Source of the DNA: a virus
Taxonomy: Duplodnaviria > Caudoviricetes
IMG/VR virus record: IMGVR_UViG_3300033808_000078
Span: 1 to 42,076 of that record
Strand: one strand, 5' to 3'
DNA: 42,076 nucleotides
Below the pieces are notes generated by a model. That model saw only the letters and a program-made list of their open reading frames with translations, was not told the origin of the DNA and did not search any database. Each line of letters starts with the position of its first letter. Within the stretch, counting starts at the first letter, position 1. Positions 928 through 42,076 of the stretch are shown here, one piece after another. A program made the translations under genes and the position numbers.

Positions 928-1461
928 ATGCCAGCGGACAAAGCAGTGGCTGAAGCTATAACGAAAATGATCGACAAGCCCTACTATCTCGGAGACGAGT
1001 CGAAAGGGCTTGATTGCCTCAACTCGCTAAAGAACTTTTACGAGGATTGTGGCTTCAGGTTCCCGCGCGAATACTGTCAATGGAGTGAAACCAACTATCG
1101 CCAAAAATGGATGGACGACGTTGAGGAGGGTAGGGCCGCGTTCTGGGACTTTCTTCATACACTCGGAACGCGCGTCGAAAAAAATTACATTATTCGTGGC
1201 GACCTTCTGATTTTTCGGAAAGATCCCCCCTTGGAGTCGATCAAGGATGCGCGGGTGATTTCAGCTCTCAATTCCGTTCTCGATATTATGCCCTTTATGA
1301 AAAAATTCATCCGGAACGTTATCGCAGGGAAGCAGATTTTAACTTTCCCTGGGATCTATACGGGCAATGGGAACTGTTTCATGGTTTTCGACAGGGGGGC
1401 AAGGCAGGTCCCTCTCAGGCTCTTCGAAAAGTATCTCGTCGAGGCGCGGAGGCTAATTTGA
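928..1461 (+). CDS. NlpC/P60-fold tail-tip protein (gpK-like), catalytic His apparently lost
   Basis: KPYYLG..GLDC..RGDLLIF..PGIYTGNG; located between L-like and J-like genes. Confidence 0.7.
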   Translation: MPADKAVAEAITKMIDKPYYLGDESKGLDCLNSLKNFYEDCGFRFPREYCQWSETNYRQKWMDDVEEGRAAFWDFLHTLGTRVEKNYIIRGDLLIFRKDPPLESIKDARVISALNSVLDIMPFMKKFIRNVIAGKQILTFPGIYTGNGNCFMVFDRGARQVPLRLFEKYLVEARRLI

Positions 1462-2105
1462 GCCGAAAGATCATCGATATGTCCCTTGAAACAAATTTTG
1501 GAATCCGCCAGCGGCGCAGGCCTCTGATTCCTCTCTATCGGCCAAACGATGTCATCTCGGGACTCACGGCAATTGTCTCAGCAGTGATAGGTGCAATATC
1601 AGGAACTTCAGCTGCTGCCGTCTCGGGTGTCATCATAGGAGGTGTGCTTATTTCCTCGACGGCCATCGCCTATGGCGTCGTCATTGCCGCAGTGATCGGC
1701 CTGACCGTCTGGAGCATGACCGCAGGCGGTAAGAGCGGATCATCGTCCGGCGGTGCCCTGGGTCTGGGGGCGGGCACCCATGCTATCGAGCAGAATGGGC
1801 AACTCGTCAACACGAGGCAGAGTTCCAAGGTGCTCCTTGTTGTCTATGGAATCTACAGGGTGGGCGGAAACTGGGTATTCTCTAGGCCTTCGTCCAGTAA
1901 CAACAATATTCTAAATGCAGTGATCACTTGGGGCGAAGGCGACATCGAGGGGTTGGCACCCGCGATTGATTTTACACCGCTTTACTCCGGAAACGCTCTA
2001 AATGATATTCACACGGGTGGGGCGTATGTTCCTAGTGATAGCTGTAGCTGCTATGGGCAATATGGACGCACGGCTTGCCAGACTTGCGATGTGGCGCACT
2101 ATTAA
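1458..2105 (+). CDS. Tail tip gpJ-like protein, N-terminal part, ending in a Cys-rich segment
   Basis: Hydrophobic Gly/Ala N-terminus, LLVVYGIYRVGGN..WGEGDIEG motif typical of the gpI/J N-region. Confidence 0.75.
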   Translation: MSRKIIDMSLETNFGIRQRRRPLIPLYRPNDVISGLTAIVSAVIGAISGTSAAAVSGVIIGGVLISSTAIAYGVVIAAVIGLTVWSMTAGGKSGSSSGGALGLGAGTHAIEQNGQLVNTRQSSKVLLVVYGIYRVGGNWVFSRPSSSNNNILNAVITWGEGDIEGLAPAIDFTPLYSGNALNDIHTGGAYVPSDSCSCYGQYGRTACQTCDVAHY

Positions 2106-2123
2106 GGAGGCTATGAACGAATA

Positions 2124-3440
2124 ATGGGTTGCGATACCTGCACTACTTATTGCCTCGATTATCCTCCTCCGCCCCCGCCTTGCTCCGTTTGCGACATGGC
2201 GTGCAACGGATACAGTTGCACCTGCGACGGCCCTTGTTATGGTTACTCAACGTCGACGAAGTATCGCGTTCAAATTGATGCGACTGGAACTCCTGACACA
2301 TTTAAATGGTCCAAGGATGGAGGGAACACGTGGAGCGCGACGGGCGTAGTGATTACCGGCGGATGGCAGACCTTGAACAATGGCGTCCAGATAAGCTTCG
2401 ATTCGACCACTGGTCACGCGCTCTCCGATTATTGGGATTTTTGGGCGGGCGACGGCGTCTGGGCAGGCGAAAGGCTAATATATTACTACAAGAATTATGG
2501 CGGCAATGATCTTATCTACCATTCCCTTCATCCCGGTACAGCCGGCCAAACGGTCGATTCAGCCCTCCAAGCGGAAGTTCCCGAATGGAATGAGGTAATG
2601 CCATACACGGCCTATTCCTATTTTCGGCTCACCTACGATGCGAATGCCTGGCAGGGAATCCCCGATTTTACGGCCCTCCTTAAAGGCAAGAAGCTCTACG
2701 ATCCAAGGAACGGCATGACGGCCTTCAGCCGCAACCCTGCGCTTGTCTGGCTTGATTTCTTGACGTCCGTTCGCTATGGGCTGGGTGTCCCGATCAGCAC
2801 TGTCAATTTGCAGAGCGTCATGAGCGCGGCGAATTGGTGTGATGCTAATAATTATTTTTTTGACGGTGCGATCATGGACAGGCAGGCCTTCATCGACAAC
2901 TTCGAAGAGCTGATGATGAACTTTCGGGCCTTCACCGTTTATAGCGAAGGAATCTATTATCTGAAGATCTTCACTTACGATGCCCCAGTGATGGCGCTTA
3001 CCGCTAGCGATATAGAAATATCTCCGGAATCGTTTACGATTAATAAAGCGGGGATTCCCGACACGCCCAATGCGGCCAAGGTGACTTTCACGGACGCCTC
3101 GAATAACTACACGGCCCAATATACTCAGGCGCAGGACCTGACCCAGATCGGTTACGATGCAGATCCAAGAGTTAAAGAGGTACTTCTAAAGGGGACGACG
3201 TCGCTGGCTCAGGCGGCTAGCCTCGCAAAGTATTGCTTGCTGCGCAATGAATTCAATACCGAATATGTACTCGTGGCTCATCCGCGATGCTATGTGCTCG
3301 AGCCTGGAGACATGATAACCGTGACGCATGAATTTCCAAACTGGAACAATAAGCTGGTCAGAGTCAAAGAGGTAACCTATCCCGCTTCTGGGATGATCAC
3401 CTTAACCTTAATGGACGAGGACTCTTCGATCTATGCCTGA
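2124..3440 (+). CDS. Tail tip gpJ-like protein, second part, starting with Cys-rich repeats
   Basis: LKGKKLYDPR..SRNPALVWLDFLTSVRYGLG, AANWCD, LEPGDMITVTH; AAGGAGG at 2104-2110; same frame as 1458-2105. Confidence 0.85.
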   Translation: MGCDTCTTYCLDYPPPPPPCSVCDMACNGYSCTCDGPCYGYSTSTKYRVQIDATGTPDTFKWSKDGGNTWSATGVVITGGWQTLNNGVQISFDSTTGHALSDYWDFWAGDGVWAGERLIYYYKNYGGNDLIYHSLHPGTAGQTVDSALQAEVPEWNEVMPYTAYSYFRLTYDANAWQGIPDFTALLKGKKLYDPRNGMTAFSRNPALVWLDFLTSVRYGLGVPISTVNLQSVMSAANWCDANNYFFDGAIMDRQAFIDNFEELMMNFRAFTVYSEGIYYLKIFTYDAPVMALTASDIEISPESFTINKAGIPDTPNAAKVTFTDASNNYTAQYTQAQDLTQIGYDADPRVKEVLLKGTTSLAQAASLAKYCLLRNEFNTEYVLVAHPRCYVLEPGDMITVTHEFPNWNNKLVRVKEVTYPASGMITLTLMDEDSSIYA

Positions 3441-4173: not shown

Positions 4174-4343
4174 CTGGATCCATTGAGGATCGAATTTTGA
4201 AATGGCTCCAAGCACGCCAAAATCAAAGGCGCTATGCCATCAAAGAAGTCGGCTACCAAGATTGTATGAATCTGCTCCACGTGCTTAGCGAGAGGATGAA
4301 AAGAATGGAAAAGAAGATGAAGCGATTGGCGAAGGCGGCTTGA
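4170..4343 (+). CDS. 57-aa hypothetical protein with C-terminal coiled coil (not in ORF track)
   Basis: AGGAG RBS, ATGA overlap; MTGSIEDRILKW...LLHVLSERMKRMEKKMKRLAKAA. Confidence 0.6.
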   Translation: MTGSIEDRILKWLQARQNQRRYAIKEVGYQDCMNLLHVLSERMKRMEKKMKRLAKAA

Positions 4344-4345
4344 CT

Positions 4346-5563
4346 ATGCTGCACCCAATCCTATATGCGACGCTTAACCTGACCCGAAACTGCAATCTCG
4401 CTTGTTCCTATTGCTTCAATTGGGGTAAAGGCAAGGGGCGAATGAATCTTGACACTGGAAAGAGATCGATCGACTTTCTTCTCAGGAACGCCCGTGAGGC
4501 CGACGAGATCTCTCTTCGCGGAAAAGGACGCCAGGTTGAATTACAGTTTTGGGGAGGGGAGCCACTGATTGAGTGGCCTCTGCTGAAGGACCTCGTGCAT
4601 TACGCTAAAAAAGCAAGCAAAGAGATTCCGGTTCGCTTCGGCGGCACGACCAATGGGACGCTTTTCACGCCGGATAAATTTACCTTCCTCAAAGAAAACC
4701 AGATCCATTTCGTCATCTCTTTCGACGGGACCCCGCAATCCCATGATACGCATAGGCGTTTCCGCAATGGAGGAGGATCCCACGCGACCATCGCCAGAAA
4801 TATTGAGGCTGGTCTGAAAATCTTCCCAGGCCTTCGGGTCCGGATGTCGCCATTTGCCGAAGGAATTGATCGATTCTATGAGGACGTAGCCTACATCATC
4901 GCCCTGGGGATTAGGCAGCTCATGTTTAGTCCAGTCTATGAATCTGGATGGACCGCAGAACGTTGGCAGACTTTCGACGCCCAGTGCCAGCAAGTCACGG
5001 ACCTTCTCCTGGCGCAGAGAGGCAAAGGCGATCCAGTTGAGATCGAGCACTACAAGAGCTATGCGAAATCAGATTCTTCACACTGGCCATGCGGCGCAGG
5101 TCGGACGTTTGTTGGAATCGATGTTGATGGATCCATTTATCCTTGCCATCGGTTTATAAAATTCAACGATGCGCGTCCATGGCATCTTCGGCCTACCTCA
5201 ATCGGCCATATAGATTTTGGGATCACGAATCCAGAATTTCGGAAAAGCTTTATTGATCGCAGGCCGACGAAATGCAACACATGCGGGTACGATAAGATCA
5301 CTCCTTGTCACGGCGGCTGCTACGCGGTGAATTACGACCTGACCGGCCATATCGCCACGCCGCCGGAGGTCCTTTGTAGATCGGTCGAGATCCAGTCGAC
5401 GATCTCACGGTCCTATCGTGAAAAATTTGGTCCAAAGGGATTTCCAGAAGCGGTCCACGTGCCGCCGACAAAACCCTCCGCATCAGGGATCATGGCCGTG
5501 GTCAAGCAAATGGAGGCCAGGATATCGGCGCTCGATAAGGTTCTCTCTCATGATGCGAATTAA
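4346..5563 (+). CDS. Radical SAM/SPASM-domain protein (anSME / thioether peptide maturase-like)
   Basis: CNLACSYC (CxxxCxxC), FWGGEPL, TTNGTL, ISFDG; SPASM CGAG..DGSIYPCHRF..CNTC..CHGGC..C. Confidence 0.95.
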   Translation: MLHPILYATLNLTRNCNLACSYCFNWGKGKGRMNLDTGKRSIDFLLRNAREADEISLRGKGRQVELQFWGGEPLIEWPLLKDLVHYAKKASKEIPVRFGGTTNGTLFTPDKFTFLKENQIHFVISFDGTPQSHDTHRRFRNGGGSHATIARNIEAGLKIFPGLRVRMSPFAEGIDRFYEDVAYIIALGIRQLMFSPVYESGWTAERWQTFDAQCQQVTDLLLAQRGKGDPVEIEHYKSYAKSDSSHWPCGAGRTFVGIDVDGSIYPCHRFIKFNDARPWHLRPTSIGHIDFGITNPEFRKSFIDRRPTKCNTCGYDKITPCHGGCYAVNYDLTGHIATPPEVLCRSVEIQSTISRSYREKFGPKGFPEAVHVPPTKPSASGIMAVVKQMEARISALDKVLSHDAN

Positions 5564-5577
5564 AAAAAGGATGGGGG

Positions 5578-6198
5578 ATGTTTGTTCCGGAAGGGCAAAA
5601 AGAAGCGAGGGGAGGCCGTGCAGCGATTCCGTCGGCTTTTTTCGCGCTCTTGGCCGTTCTCTTTCTCGTGGCGGTCCACTGGAATGACGAAGGAACCCAA
5701 AGACAGTCAGTCTATCAAGAAGCCATTGCCACAGAGGAAAACATACAGAGAGACGAGATGGAGCCAGGGCCCTTTAGAGACTGGACTAGTCACGAAGAAA
5801 GAATTAGGTTCATCAAGGTCGTGATGGCCTTTGAGGGAACGCCCTACAAGGCCGGCGGAAATACGGCGAGCGGGATGGATTGTTCCGGGTTGGTTTACAT
5901 CGCTTACAGAATTTTTGACGTGACGCTTCCCAGGACCGTGGCCCGCCAGTTCTGCATCGGAAGAAAGATCAGGCGCGATGAGCTTGAAGAGGGCGATCTT
6001 GTCTTCTTTAATGGCTTTGAAAAGGCGAACCATGTGGGCATTTACCTCGGCGACGGGAAATTCATCCACGCCTCTTCGACCGCGAAAAAACTCAGGATCG
6101 ATTTTCTCGCCTCGCCATGGCAGTACAAACACTTTCTCGGGGCAGTCCGCATCCGAGAACTGAAAGAGCCGAAAAAAGGCTCAAGAGAGACGAGATAA
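5578..6198 (+). CDS. NlpC/P60 (C40) cell-wall peptidase with N-terminal membrane anchor
   Basis: GTPYKAGG..GMDCSG..GDLVFF..HVGIYLGDGKFIHAS, intact C-H-H triad. Confidence 0.9.
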   Translation: MFVPEGQKEARGGRAAIPSAFFALLAVLFLVAVHWNDEGTQRQSVYQEAIATEENIQRDEMEPGPFRDWTSHEERIRFIKVVMAFEGTPYKAGGNTASGMDCSGLVYIAYRIFDVTLPRTVARQFCIGRKIRRDELEEGDLVFFNGFEKANHVGIYLGDGKFIHASSTAKKLRIDFLASPWQYKHFLGAVRIRELKEPKKGSRETR

Positions 6199-6609
6199 AT
6201 GGTCGGCGAAAGGGAAAAATGGTTCCTCATGTGCCCCAAGTGTGGAGAGATCCAAGCTGACATCAGACACGCGAGGCAGGAAATGGAAGAAAGAAAAGCG
6301 GCAGAGAAGAAATTTTTCGAAAAGCTCGACGATCTCCTGAGAGCAATTGCGAATACGCCTTCGACTAAAACTCTTCTGGCTCTAGTCACACTGGTGGCAA
6401 TGATAGGCGGGATCGTAGCGACGCTTATTTACTATTCTCATCGCGATCGAATGGCAAGCCTCGAGGCGGCACAGACGGCGATAAATCTAAAAATCGACAA
6501 GAACCAGACTGACCTATTCGAGAAGATCGACAGGCTAAGAGACGCCCAAACCTTTGGGAAGGCGGGCTACGCCCCCCCGAAAAAGAAACGCCCGGAGGAC
6601 ACCCCTTGA
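6199..6609 (+). CDS. Single-TM coiled-coil protein of the lysis region (holin-like?)
   Basis: One hydrophobic helix LLALVTLVAMIGGIVATLIYY. Confidence 0.55.
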   Translation: MVGEREKWFLMCPKCGEIQADIRHARQEMEERKAAEKKFFEKLDDLLRAIANTPSTKTLLALVTLVAMIGGIVATLIYYSHRDRMASLEAAQTAINLKIDKNQTDLFEKIDRLRDAQTFGKAGYAPPKKKRPEDTP

Positions 6610-6791
6610 GAATTAATAGGATCGGATTAAACGTCGGATATGACAAGTTTCTTATCATCGAAGGTTGGGCCTACCGCGGGCGCAAGCTTCTCGAAAATGG
6701 GGAAGAGGAAAAAGCAAAGAGTTGCGCAAAGCGTATCAGCGAAGAGTTGAAAATTCTTAAAGTAATTCTGAAGCTCGAGGAGAACGAATGA
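6606..6791 (+). CDS. Hypothetical protein
   Basis: GGAGG RBS; overlaps both neighbours by 4 nt. Confidence 0.5.
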   Translation: MRINRIGLNVGYDKFLIIEGWAYRGRKLLENGEEEKAKSCAKRISEELKILKVILKLEENE

Positions 6792-7144
6792 AAAGGCCAG
6801 AATTCACGGCAAACATATGCAAGCTTATTTTGAGGATGATCGAAGAGGGCGAGAATCCCATTGGATGCGACTGGTGGCGATCCCTGCAATGACAGCAGGC
6901 TGACTTTGCCGTGGGCAGAGACGAGCACGGAAACATAACCGGACCGACAATTACGAACTGCGATGGCATTAAAAATGTATCGGGGCATCAATCGGGCAAA
7001 GCCCTGGACATTAACTTTCTCTCCGATGACAATTCGAAGCTTCTTGATGCGCCGAAAAAGGGCTGGACGTATTGGCACAATGTAGCCGTGGAAATGGATT
7101 TCGGGAGAGAAATAGGTTGGGACAAAGATCACTTTGAGGGTTGA
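6788..7144 (+). CDS. Endolysin, peptidase M15 family, with in-frame TGA at 6890-6892 (codon 35; putative Sec)
   Basis: MKRPEFT..DWWRSLQ*QQADFAVGR..TNCDG..SGHQSGKALD..WDKDHFE; Zn motifs SxH-x6-D and DxxH intact; ATGA-coupled start. Confidence 0.85.
6904..6920 (+). promoter_or_regulatory. Putative bacterial SECIS hairpin
   Basis: CTTTGCC-GTG-GGCAGAG 7-bp stem starting 11 nt after the TGA, loop begins GU. Confidence 0.55.
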
Positions 7145-7160
7145 AAGGAGGTGATACTGG

Positions 7161-7340
7161 ATGAATACGGATCTCGCAACGAGCGTGGCAGGGGCAGTCG
7201 CGGCGATATGTGGAATCCTCGCATATTTCAACGTCATCGTTCCGCAGCCGGTAAGTGCTGCAATAGGAGCCGTGGCGGTCGGCGTCCTCGGCTATTTCAC
7301 AAACAAAGCATCTAAGCCCAAGCCTCCGCCGCAGCCATAG
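7161..7340 (+). CDS. Holin-like 59-aa two-TM protein (not in ORF track)
   Basis: AAGGAGGTGA RBS; two hydrophobic helices and basic tail; directly after the endolysin. Confidence 0.7.
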   Translation: MNTDLATSVAGAVAAICGILAYFNVIVPQPVSAAIGAVAVGVLGYFTNKASKPKPPPQP

Positions 7341-7384
7341 CGGAGCGGAAAATATTCCAAAAAATATTTCAAAGGAGGTAGAGA

Positions 7385-7846
7385 ATGAAAAAAATTCTAT
7401 TCATTGTCCTGATCGTCCTTTTTTGGGCATTGCCGGCCCTAGCGCAAACTCCGACGCCCTCGCCGACACCGGCTCCATCCAGCGCCCCTACGGTTTCCGA
7501 TCTTCAAACTGTTTTCGGTTCATTCAACATCGGCACGGATCTTGTCTATCTGCCAAGGGCCAGGCAGTGGGAGGTGGGCGGCGGTGCGAACCTCGTCACC
7601 TGGAAGAATCTGCTCAATCTGCGTTTTCAGGTCGCCCAAGGCGCAACTGGGAGCCCCTTCTTCGGCGGCGGCATCAATGTGAATCTAGTGTCGCTTGCCA
7701 ACTTAACAGGGACGAACATCCAGCTCAGCGGTGTGATGAAAGCACTCAACCCAGCGATCGGAATAATGCCCGGGTATAACAGCACTCCCGGGGCAAAGAG
7801 ATTCGATTACGCAGTTGTGCTCAGCGTCATTGGCGTCACGTTCTAG
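7385..7846 (+). CDS. Secreted, probable small outer-membrane beta-barrel protein
   Basis: Signal peptide (..PALA), Pro/Thr linker, amphipathic strands, C-terminal VIGVTF. Confidence 0.55.
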   Translation: MKKILFIVLIVLFWALPALAQTPTPSPTPAPSSAPTVSDLQTVFGSFNIGTDLVYLPRARQWEVGGGANLVTWKNLLNLRFQVAQGATGSPFFGGGINVNLVSLANLTGTNIQLSGVMKALNPAIGIMPGYNSTPGAKRFDYAVVLSVIGVTF

Positions 7847-7871
7847 CCGGTGGCGGCCAAAGGGGAAAAAC

Positions 7872-8129
7872 ATGGATGCAACTCAAGTCATAGGCCTTAT
7901 TGCGCCCATTTTACAAACCGGACCCGTCGCAAGCATCGCCGGTGCACTAAATGAAGGGCTTAAATTGGTTAATCATCTCACCAGGGACGATCCAATAAAG
8001 CAGGCGAAAGCGCAAAGAGAATATTTGATGAGCCTAGACCTGATTGTGAAGGAGGTGCAGAATGCGGCGAAAGGCGAGGACGTATCTGCTTATCTGGATG
8101 CTTTCAGCAAACTGCTTGATTCTAAGTAG
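7872..8129 (+). CDS. Putative i-spanin (Rz-like)
   Basis: Hydrophobic N-terminus, helical body; overlaps a lipoprotein gene. Confidence 0.45.
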   Translation: MDATQVIGLIAPILQTGPVASIAGALNEGLKLVNHLTRDDPIKQAKAQREYLMSLDLIVKEVQNAAKGEDVSAYLDAFSKLLDSK

Positions 8130-8280
8130 TTGCGCGATGACCAGGCCGGAAATAATCTACAAAAACGTTCCGGAAGGGTACGTGGTGGTAAGCAAAGAGG
8201 CGCTGGCTGGGACGCTGCAATCGTGCGAGAGGTGCAAATCGGAGCTGCTAGATTGTTTGGGGAAATTGCCCCCCAAGTGA
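8062..8280 (+). CDS. Putative o-spanin lipoprotein (Rz1-like)
   Basis: AAGGAGG RBS, lipobox LSSC, overlaps the 3' end of the upstream gene. Confidence 0.6.
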   Translation: MRRKARTYLLIWMLSANCLILSSCAMTRPEIIYKNVPEGYVVVSKEALAGTLQSCERCKSELLDCLGKLPPK

Positions 8281-40875: not shown

Positions 40876-42076
40876 AAATTCTGCCGACCGTCCTGACAGC
40901 TGAGGTCCTCAAAGACGTCGTGAGGATGCGCCACTTCTTTACCCTCACGACAGACAGCGATGTATATCGATGGACCGACGGTAACAACAGCGTCTACTAC
41001 AACGGCTTCTGGTACGTCTCTTCTCAAATTTCAATCGACCAATCCCTCGTTACCCTTACTTCCGTCGTGGATACACTCGTACTTTCGATCGCGAACGTGG
41101 ATAAAACTTTTTCCAATCTCGCACTCTCGACGCAGCTGCGCGGCAAGAGCATCGTTATCCAGACCGTGCTCCTGGACACCAATTGGTATGTCGTGGGTGT
41201 CCCCGTCACCATTTTTTCTGGATATTTCGATTCGATGGTAATTGATCGGGGCAAGGCCAAGATCCAATGCTTCAATGAGATGATCAAGTGGAAGACCCAG
41301 ACGCCGAGGCGGATGCATTCTCAGACCTGCAGTTGGATTTTTATGGGCACTGAGTGTGCGTATGCCGGCCTGCTCTATTTAAATCCGATCTCAGACATCG
41401 CTCCTGGCTTTACTCGGAGCCTGGGAAGCTACAATTATGCCAACGTGAACGATCGCGCAACAGACCTCACGGCAGGCAATACCATCAGCGCGGATAGCAA
41501 TGACGGGGCTGGTCATGTGGCCGCCAATGCATGCGACGACAATAATTCAACCTACTGGGCCTCCGCAAGTACAGCGCTTCCGCATTGGTTGAGGTGTCAG
41601 TTTAGCTCGCCAAAAAAGGTAGCGACATATTCGATTTTCCCAGTGTCGCAGGCTGCGGCGCCGACCTACTTTAAACTCCAGGGGTCAAATGACGGATCAA
41701 CTTGGTCGGACCTGGATGTCAGAACGGGGGTCTCTTGGCCAACGCCTGTCCGCCGGACCTTCGATGTCCACACGCCTTCCCCTTACACCTACTATCAAAT
41801 CTACGTCATGGCCAATGTGAGCGGGAATACGACCTCTATTTATGAGTTCGAACTGATTGGGACCTCGGACGAGGTCAACGATGCAGATTATAATTACACG
41901 AGTTCTACGTCGGCCCAGGCGGATCTTTTTGGATTGCCTGCGATGGCCTTGTCGAGTGACGTTTCTGGCATCGTAGTCACCGTGCGAGTGCGGGCAAAAC
42001 AGGTTACAGCCAGCGCGAGAAACCTCGCGGGAAGGATCAGGGTATTCGGCACGGACTATGATGCGACAGCGATCAC
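40872..42076 (+). CDS. Tail hub / gpL-like protein, N-terminal part (wraps to 926; absent from ORF track)
   Basis: GTG at 40872 overlapping the upstream TGA; YRWTD..IANVD..IFSGYFD..PRR..CSWIFMGTECAY, then first F5/8-like domain; open to the end. Confidence 0.85.
   Translation, partial: MKILPTVLTAEVLKDVVRMRHFFTLTTDSDVYRWTDGNNSVYYNGFWYVSSQISIDQSLVTLTSVVDTLVLSIANVDKTFSNLALSTQLRGKSIVIQTVLLDTNWYVVGVPVTIFSGYFDSMVIDRGKAKIQCFNEMIKWKTQTPRRMHSQTCSWIFMGTECAYAGLLYLNPISDIAPGFTRSLGSYNYANVNDRATDLTAGNTISADSNDGAGHVAANACDDNNSTYWASASTALPHWLRCQFSSPKKVATYSIFPVSQAAAPTYFKLQGSNDGSTWSDLDVRTGVSWPTPVRRTFDVHTPSPYTYYQIYVMANVSGNTTSIYEFELIGTSDEVNDADYNYTSSTSAQADLFGLPAMALSSDVSGIVVTVRVRAKQVTASARNLAGRIRVFGTDYDATAI
41902..42076. 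repeat. Terminal overlap with 1-175
   Basis: 173/175 identical. Confidence 0.95.

Follow-up and report, generated by a model that had tools for sequence, protein, structure and literature searches.

The window examined here is the whole 42,076-base stretch of the IMG/VR virus record IMGVR_UViG_3300033808_000078 (Duplodnaviria; Caudoviricetes), and the gene in question is a predicted endolysin gene of 118 codons (6788..7144, + strand) that carries a single internal, in-frame TGA at codon 35 (6890..6892, +). The open reading frame (ORF) runs from ATG 6788, 5 nt behind a Shine-Dalgarno (SD) sequence, GAGGAG (6777..6782, +; -8.9 kcal/mol), to a terminal TGA at 7142-7144. A profile of 47 relatives of the encoded protein (P0001) matches the peptidases Ply500 (2vo9, E 8e-9) and LysB4, and the structure model of P0001, with a predicted local distance difference test (pLDDT) score of 96.7, is aligned to 2vo9 by Foldseek at E 1.5e-5 and TM 0.76. 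The motifs RS..Q, S.H, A.D and D..H align with those of Ply500 and LysB4 at 23-25% overall identity; P0001 has no Pfam, PHROG or NCBIfam match, and some of its homologues carry PF02557 or PF13539. By sequence and model comparison the product is a predicted Ply500-type M15 zinc peptidase (L-Ala-D-Glu type) and a predicted endolysin. The internal TGA falls in the first turn of a predicted helix (33-41), between the RS motif (31-32) and the predicted zinc ligands H67 (6986), D74 (7007) and H115 (7130), which together with D112 (7121) span 6986..7132 (+). On its 5' side lies R31 (6878..6880, +), the nearly invariant Arg of the RS motif in the homologue alignment, which the fragment P0034 (described below) has as well. 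R31, Q36, S65, H67, D74, D112 and H115 are all intact, and their catalytic and zinc-binding roles are those that we take over from Ply500; residue 35, the counterpart of the Glu in Ply500's RSTAEQ, is not among the ligand positions.

The same TGA is present in a Logan contig (depth 22.8) of run X1, a peat metagenome and the sole run listed for the record, with zero differing letters over 6400-7600. An error of a single assembler was therefore rejected as its source, and this is all that the match excludes, because X1 may be the source sample, the contig is not an independent sample and possibly derives from the same reads, and contigs drop rare variants. A global reassignment of TGA (code 4 or 25) was also rejected, because TGA ends 20 of the 48 ORFs picked as genes (11,611 codons) and no tRNA gene was found in the phage (ARAGORN 0; Rfam scan at E up to 5 without any tRNA family). 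TGA is the commonest stop among these ORFs (TAA 17, TAG 11), several of the TGA ends form ATGA or TTGA overlaps, and no other TGA-interrupted gene is apparent in the window. A first-pass annotation of this DNA had proposed an M15 peptidase with one TGA between two intact sides and a code that is not globally reassigned, and all of this is borne out.

Relatives apparently split at codon 35

All homologues more than 65% identical to P0001 are fragments, the full-length ones reaching at most ~61%. P0034 (34 aa, 68% identical) ends at RSLQ, exactly where the first half of P0001 ends (codon 34; exhaustive search), and P0004 and P0059 (78 aa, 73-74% identical) start at the same V/M-GRD as the window's own second fragment, GTG 6911, while P0005 (72 aa, 75% identical) is a third C-terminal fragment whose called start differs. 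P0034 and P0059 both come from JGI, and the longest contig of either record measures 991 bp; the contig encoding P0004 has 620 bp. A tree was built of the C-terminal half (56 rows, the part from residue 54 only, 65 columns kept), and in it P0001, P0059 and P0005 form one branch (support 99/95), with the other 53 rows all outside it and no intact protein within the clade. A search for short N-terminal fragments returned only the window's own 34-mer, missing P0034, and is uninformative on how abundant such fragments are.

Both halves of the gene have diverged in a selective manner. A column was counted as conserved when at least 60% of 91 proteins (95-145 aa) agree in it. On this basis the window is identical to P0034 at 15/16 conserved and 8/18 variable columns (p 0.003) and to P0059 at 29/31 conserved and 27/45 variable columns (p 0.0008), which pools to 44/47 conserved against 35/63 variable columns (p 5e-6); P0059 and P0005 compared with each other give p 0.003. 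Predicted catalytic residues and conserved columns have thus been spared in both halves after 26-32% divergence. The stop at codon 35 appears to be shared with a ~70%-identical relative, and if it was already present in the common ancestor, these substitution patterns suggest that the full-length product has been selected since then. The first-pass annotation had kept a plain nonsense mutation as a possibility; a recent one has become improbable, since a diverged relative seems to break off at this very codon and purifying selection shows in each half.

Three points weigh against a shared, translated UGA. The pairing of P0034 with P0059 rests on the equal length of 991 bp and the common source, and P0032 and P0005 also share a length (1271 bp). 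The split relatives are known as protein records only, so their stop could be TAA or TAG, and no DNA of theirs was found in viral, metagenome (smallest returned 1029 bp) or genome contigs, cultured phages or plasmids. The conserved-column test of the window against P0005 alone is not significant (p 0.09). Run X1 also holds a 316-bp contig resembling the P0005-type relative, which stops short of the TGA site. A pattern search for a stop at codon 35 in other M15 genes gave 0 matches of the LYAQGR type and 1 in the GRD subfamily, which is unrelated (L080).

Other members of the family were observed in passing. L003 holds a second, more diverged copy of the lysin's peptidase family, in which RQSRLAV replaces the RS..EQ motif, and L075:1274-1450 is a distant M15 match with a stop inside the aligned stretch, though not at column 35. 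L077 and L078 are family members in metagenome-assembled contigs labelled Parcubacteria and Methanomethylicus; the L077 match is identical to that of the viral contig L006, so both are probably binned phages.

The hairpin behind the UGA and the residue it replaces

Directly downstream of the UGA lies a hairpin, CTTTGCC-GTG-GGCAGAG (6904..6920, +), resembling a bacterial selenocysteine insertion sequence (SECIS), of which the E. coli fdhF element, with its 11-nt rule, is the archetype. Here 11 nt separate the UGA from a 7-bp stem, and the GUG loop (6911-6913) follows 18 nt after the UGA; a weaker lower stem spans ~6899-6926. The seven stem pairs include one U.G, each has a pairing probability of 0.96-0.97 in a 130-nt context, and the hairpin is part of the minimum free energy (MFE) structure in 5/5 folded segments (-8.5 to -11.8 kcal/mol). 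The published bacterial consensus allows a loop of 3-9 nt with G in one of its first two positions, a stem of 4-16 bp, a spacing of 16-37 nt and an MFE <= -7.5 (PMC13188914, Fig. 2 legend), and the hairpin agrees with all four constraints (loop 3 nt, stem 7 bp, C-G-U-G-G loop pattern, spacing 18 nt; -8.5 kcal/mol).

How often such agreement arises by chance was gauged with two models. A loose SECIS model (our own implementation) passes 166/3000 sense codons and 309/5000 synonymous recodings of the same peptide and is permissive, with 85/1416 other TGA trinucleotides of the genome passing; none of the 20 TGA gene ends (0/20) gives a match under it. A strict model passes 7/1416 TGA contexts, 5/3000 sense codons and 164/5000 synonymous recodings. 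The chance of a match is therefore ~6% under the loose and 0.5-3% under the strict model, or ~1-in-16 to 1-in-30 given the protein. Against the hairpin it must be said that the strict model is post hoc, having been set after the target was seen, that stability is only modestly unusual (z -0.8 to -2.3), and that 7% of synonymous recodings fold as well over 41 nt, the energy alone being unexceptional. The match to the SECIS consensus is suggestive, not decisive.

The residue at codon 35 argues in the other direction. Among 96 aligned proteins (six long ones of 719-5484 aa left out, some rows redundant), 88 have a residue at column 35 (E65, Q4, A4, T3, R3, L2, Y2, and I, G, S, D and V one each), and Cys occurs in 0/88; of 80 locus alignments, 47 reach the column, with Cys or a stop in 0/47. 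The syntenic relatives L001 and L002, which are 59% identical and share the GCDW motif, the NlpC/P60 gene and the transmembrane (TM) gene described below, have Ala there (GCC and GCG) and no hairpin. The column is non-catalytic, and the protein is a hydrolase. A Sec/Cys pairing, in which selenocysteine (Sec) aligns with Cys, is the usual criterion for a selenoprotein (PMC1088965, PMC13188914, PMC12013277), and all known selenoproteins seem to have Cys-containing homologues, as stated in PMC12013277; on the counts given above the lysin fails this criterion. bioRxiv 2022.07.06.499078 describes a case in which Sec aligns with Met in a distant homologue. For the lysin, a redox role of Sec, by analogy with a Cys homologue, was rejected. 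None of 10 intact homologue loci has a SECIS-type hairpin under the loose or strict model. The lack of hairpin and Cys in intact homologues lowers the Sec claim without killing it, because intact genes carry sense codons and need no SECIS.

The first-pass annotation had read the hairpin (7 bp, 11 nt after the UGA, GU loop) as an fdhF-like SECIS, and this survives as a fit to the bacterial consensus. A Sec/Cys pair at codon 35, which it had been unable to confirm, is not supported. Non-Cys relatives lacking a conserved hairpin, which it had named as speaking against its proposal, were found in so far as Cys is absent from the homologues and the hairpin from the intact loci, but the sense codons of those loci, which call for no SECIS, keep this from being decisive.

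How the UGA may be read

Readthrough of some kind at the codon-35 UGA is, in our judgement, likely. That host SelB decodes it through the hairpin 11 nt downstream, most likely as selenocysteine, has about an even chance of being correct. The stop would have arisen once, in the ancestor of the clade, at a helix position that tolerates change (Glu or Ala in relatives), and would have survived thanks to a SECIS-like hairpin that was already present downstream or formed there soon after, since a nonsense change in front of such a hairpin would be rescued immediately in a Sec-using host and could persist. Retaining the UGA would then need no special selection, because the window and its relative differ at just 44% of variable columns. 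Selenium probably plays no catalytic part, and the UGA may then gate translation: a host lacking SelB or selenium would yield just a 34-residue peptide missing all three zinc ligands, and only one whose selenium machinery works would produce the full-length lysin. In a sub-variant, the SelB*/selC* tRNA-Cys(UCA) system described in delta-proteobacteria would insert Cys instead. That the phage clade uses a SelB-read UGA at a residue-indifferent site as a switch, making lysis depend on host selenium and an active Sec machinery, is a more tentative proposal that we hold to be rather unlikely.

Column 35 accepts at least 12 residues, so the identity of the inserted residue looks unimportant, and SelB-independent leakage, in which a near-cognate tRNA (Trp, Cys or Arg) reads the UGA on a small share of ribosomes, could yield enough lysin at a capped level, the hairpin being there by chance or as a general readthrough stimulator. 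The UGA is followed by C, presumably a weak termination context, but C also comes next after 5/20 TGA gene ends. Leakage accounts for the shared split and the purifying selection without Cys homologues, and Qbeta readthrough offers a phage precedent (PMC8310308). It leaves the SECIS-consensus match to chance, however (3-6% given the protein), and a stop that sharply cuts lysin ought to be lost readily where the site is tolerant, unless selection favours low output; we consider it possible though on the unlikely side, and favour SelB/SECIS decoding over it. That the gene is dead, the TGA being a nonsense mutation, with lysis left to the upstream NlpC/P60 peptidase or the phage defective, would fit the lack of a Cys homologue, the presence of that second peptidoglycan hydrolase, the in-frame TAA in the tail J gene of the same phage, and a relative known from protein records only. 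The matching fragments would then be coincidence, cut contigs or the remains of a shared dead ancestor. Yet conserved columns and predicted catalytic residues have been spared on both sides of the stop despite 26-32% divergence, a contig end is unlikely to cut an N-terminal fragment at precisely this codon, the NlpC/P60 gene is also present in relatives whose lysins are intact and is hence not a replacement, and the TAA in the tail gene, which overlaps a strong SD (-11.3 kcal/mol), may mark a natural border between genes. Death of the gene is therefore improbable.

Selection on both halves and a called GTG start whose position the window shares with P0004/P0059 would also be expected if translation stopped at the UGA and restarted at GTG 6911, the 34-aa and 77-aa chains assembling as an active peptidase. 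The SD before this GTG is weak (-3.4 kcal/mol vs -8.9 for the real start), however, and the codon sits locked in the hairpin loop, closed by a stem of pairing probability 0.97; residues 35-41, including the conserved Q36 and predicted helix 33-41, would be lost, and P0005 starts elsewhere, all of which makes a split enzyme very improbable. A host opal suppressor acting without a SECIS, such as an allo-tRNA charged with Ser or Ala, would restore the Ala that L001 and L002 encode at this site, and possible nonsense-suppressor tRNAs are described from Acidobacteria and forest/peat soil data (PMC5389517). The phage has no tRNA gene that we could find, and a general suppressor would lengthen the products of the 20 TGA-ending genes as well and leave the hairpin unexplained; such suppression is highly unlikely.

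The feature itself is real, programmed or rescued readthrough is likely, and Sec is plausible but unproven. Searches for selenoproteins use Sec/Cys pairs as a filter and so are built to overlook a UGA that a SECIS rescues at a site without Cys. The SelB reading, if true, would reveal that new selenoproteins can arise without a catalytic Cys as their starting point and would tie phage lysis, perhaps also host range, to selenium metabolism in anaerobes. The switch proposal, if true, would bring together a phage selenoprotein, a selenoprotein without a Cys homologue and a nutrient-sensing lysis gate at once. Even under leaky readthrough, the recoding would still be conserved and confined to one gene, that of a lysin which annotation breaks into two.

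Genomic setting and known systems

The gene lies among others of probable lytic function. An NlpC/P60 peptidase with an N-terminal hydrophobic segment (5578..6198, +), also found before the intact lysins of L001 and L002, is followed by a putatively holin-like protein with one TM segment (6199..6609, +), syntenic with L001 and L002. Downstream are a small hydrophobic protein, possibly holin-like from its sequence (7161..7340, +), and a putatively spanin-like group (7385..8280, +) comprising a protein with a signal peptide (7385-7846) plus two small ORFs that overlap, with a lipobox-like LSSC in the last; these ORFs have no Pfam or PHROG match. Together with the lysin, the NlpC/P60 peptidase, the one-TM protein and the small membrane or lipoprotein-like ORFs probably form a lysis module. 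The record has a completeness rating of 100%, and the genome is likely circular and complete, because its ends (1-175 and 41902-42076) overlap over 175 bases with two mismatches and the ORF at the window end continues into the ORF at the window start. Lambda-like head and tail genes, an integrase and a repressor-like gene indicate that the phage is likely a temperate siphovirus.

As to the host, the NlpC/P60 protein is structurally nearest to LysM-NlpC/P60 proteins of Thermodesulfobacteriota, and the top four structural neighbour clusters of this protein and the top one of the integrase are most often from the same phylum. This gives a weak hint of a Thermodesulfobacteriota host, weak because Atlas feature searches point to other phyla (Pseudomonadota, Acidobacteriota, Aminicenantota), which also tells against the SelB reading. 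Thermodesulfobacteriota are described as selenoprotein-rich (PMC13188914, PMC5029168), and some have a tRNA-Cys(UCA) beside a second selB (PMC5389517). Near the integrase, no tRNA gene or T-arm motif that would mark a selC attachment site was found.

Upstream, a TAA at 2103-2105 interrupts the frame of the tail J-like gene (1458-3440) within a stretch rich in Cys. It belongs to TAAGGAGG, which is a strong SD (-11.3 kcal/mol) lying 13 nt ahead of ATG 2124, and both parts of the gene match phrog_31; a relative spanning the break was looked for and none was found, a natural split and a nonsense change both being possible. A radical SAM/SPASM gene (4340-5563), whose best but sub-threshold match is a PapB-type ranthipeptide maturase (E 5e-66), is near the Cys-rich segment of the tail (~2035-2250), a possible substrate of the encoded enzyme.

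A search for a published phage-encoded selenoprotein found none, with most subscription journals, and supplements that could list prophage genes, outside its reach; the accessible parts of PMC13188914 and PMC13326102 do not mention phage. A viral parallel is provided by the poxvirus selenoproteins, the glutathione peroxidases of molluscum contagiosum and fowlpox viruses (PMC8310308), which rely on host Sec insertion as is proposed for the lysin; those are captured eukaryotic peroxidases with a catalytic Sec, whereas here a phage lysis enzyme would depend on a candidate SECIS of bacterial type. With bacterial SECIS/SelB genes (PMC13188914, Fig. 2) the lysin shares an in-frame UGA, a small G-containing loop 18 nt downstream and a 7-bp stem, and the candidate SECIS of the SaoC protein, 7 bp with a GGU loop (bioRxiv 2022.07.06.499078), is close to it in geometry. 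It differs from those genes in being phage-borne, a hydrolase, interrupted at a non-catalytic site and without a Cys homologue, and in relying on a host Sec machinery that is presumed. The selC*/SelB* insertion of Cys at UGA in delta-proteobacteria (PMC5389517) is a host system that could decode the same UGA in the hinted host group. As an enzyme, the lysin has the fold and motifs of the L-alanyl-D-glutamate peptidases Ply500 and LysB4 (M15; 2vo9, 6akv), but it lacks a cell-wall-binding domain and has its UGA at the Glu of RSTAEQ. In stop-codon-recoded phages, for which recoding has been proposed to regulate late and lytic genes (bioRxiv 2021.08.26.457843; PMC9523058), a stop codon inside a lysis gene could likewise gate translation, whereas here a single internal TGA lies in a single gene of a phage that keeps TGA as the stop of 20 genes and in which no tRNA gene was found.
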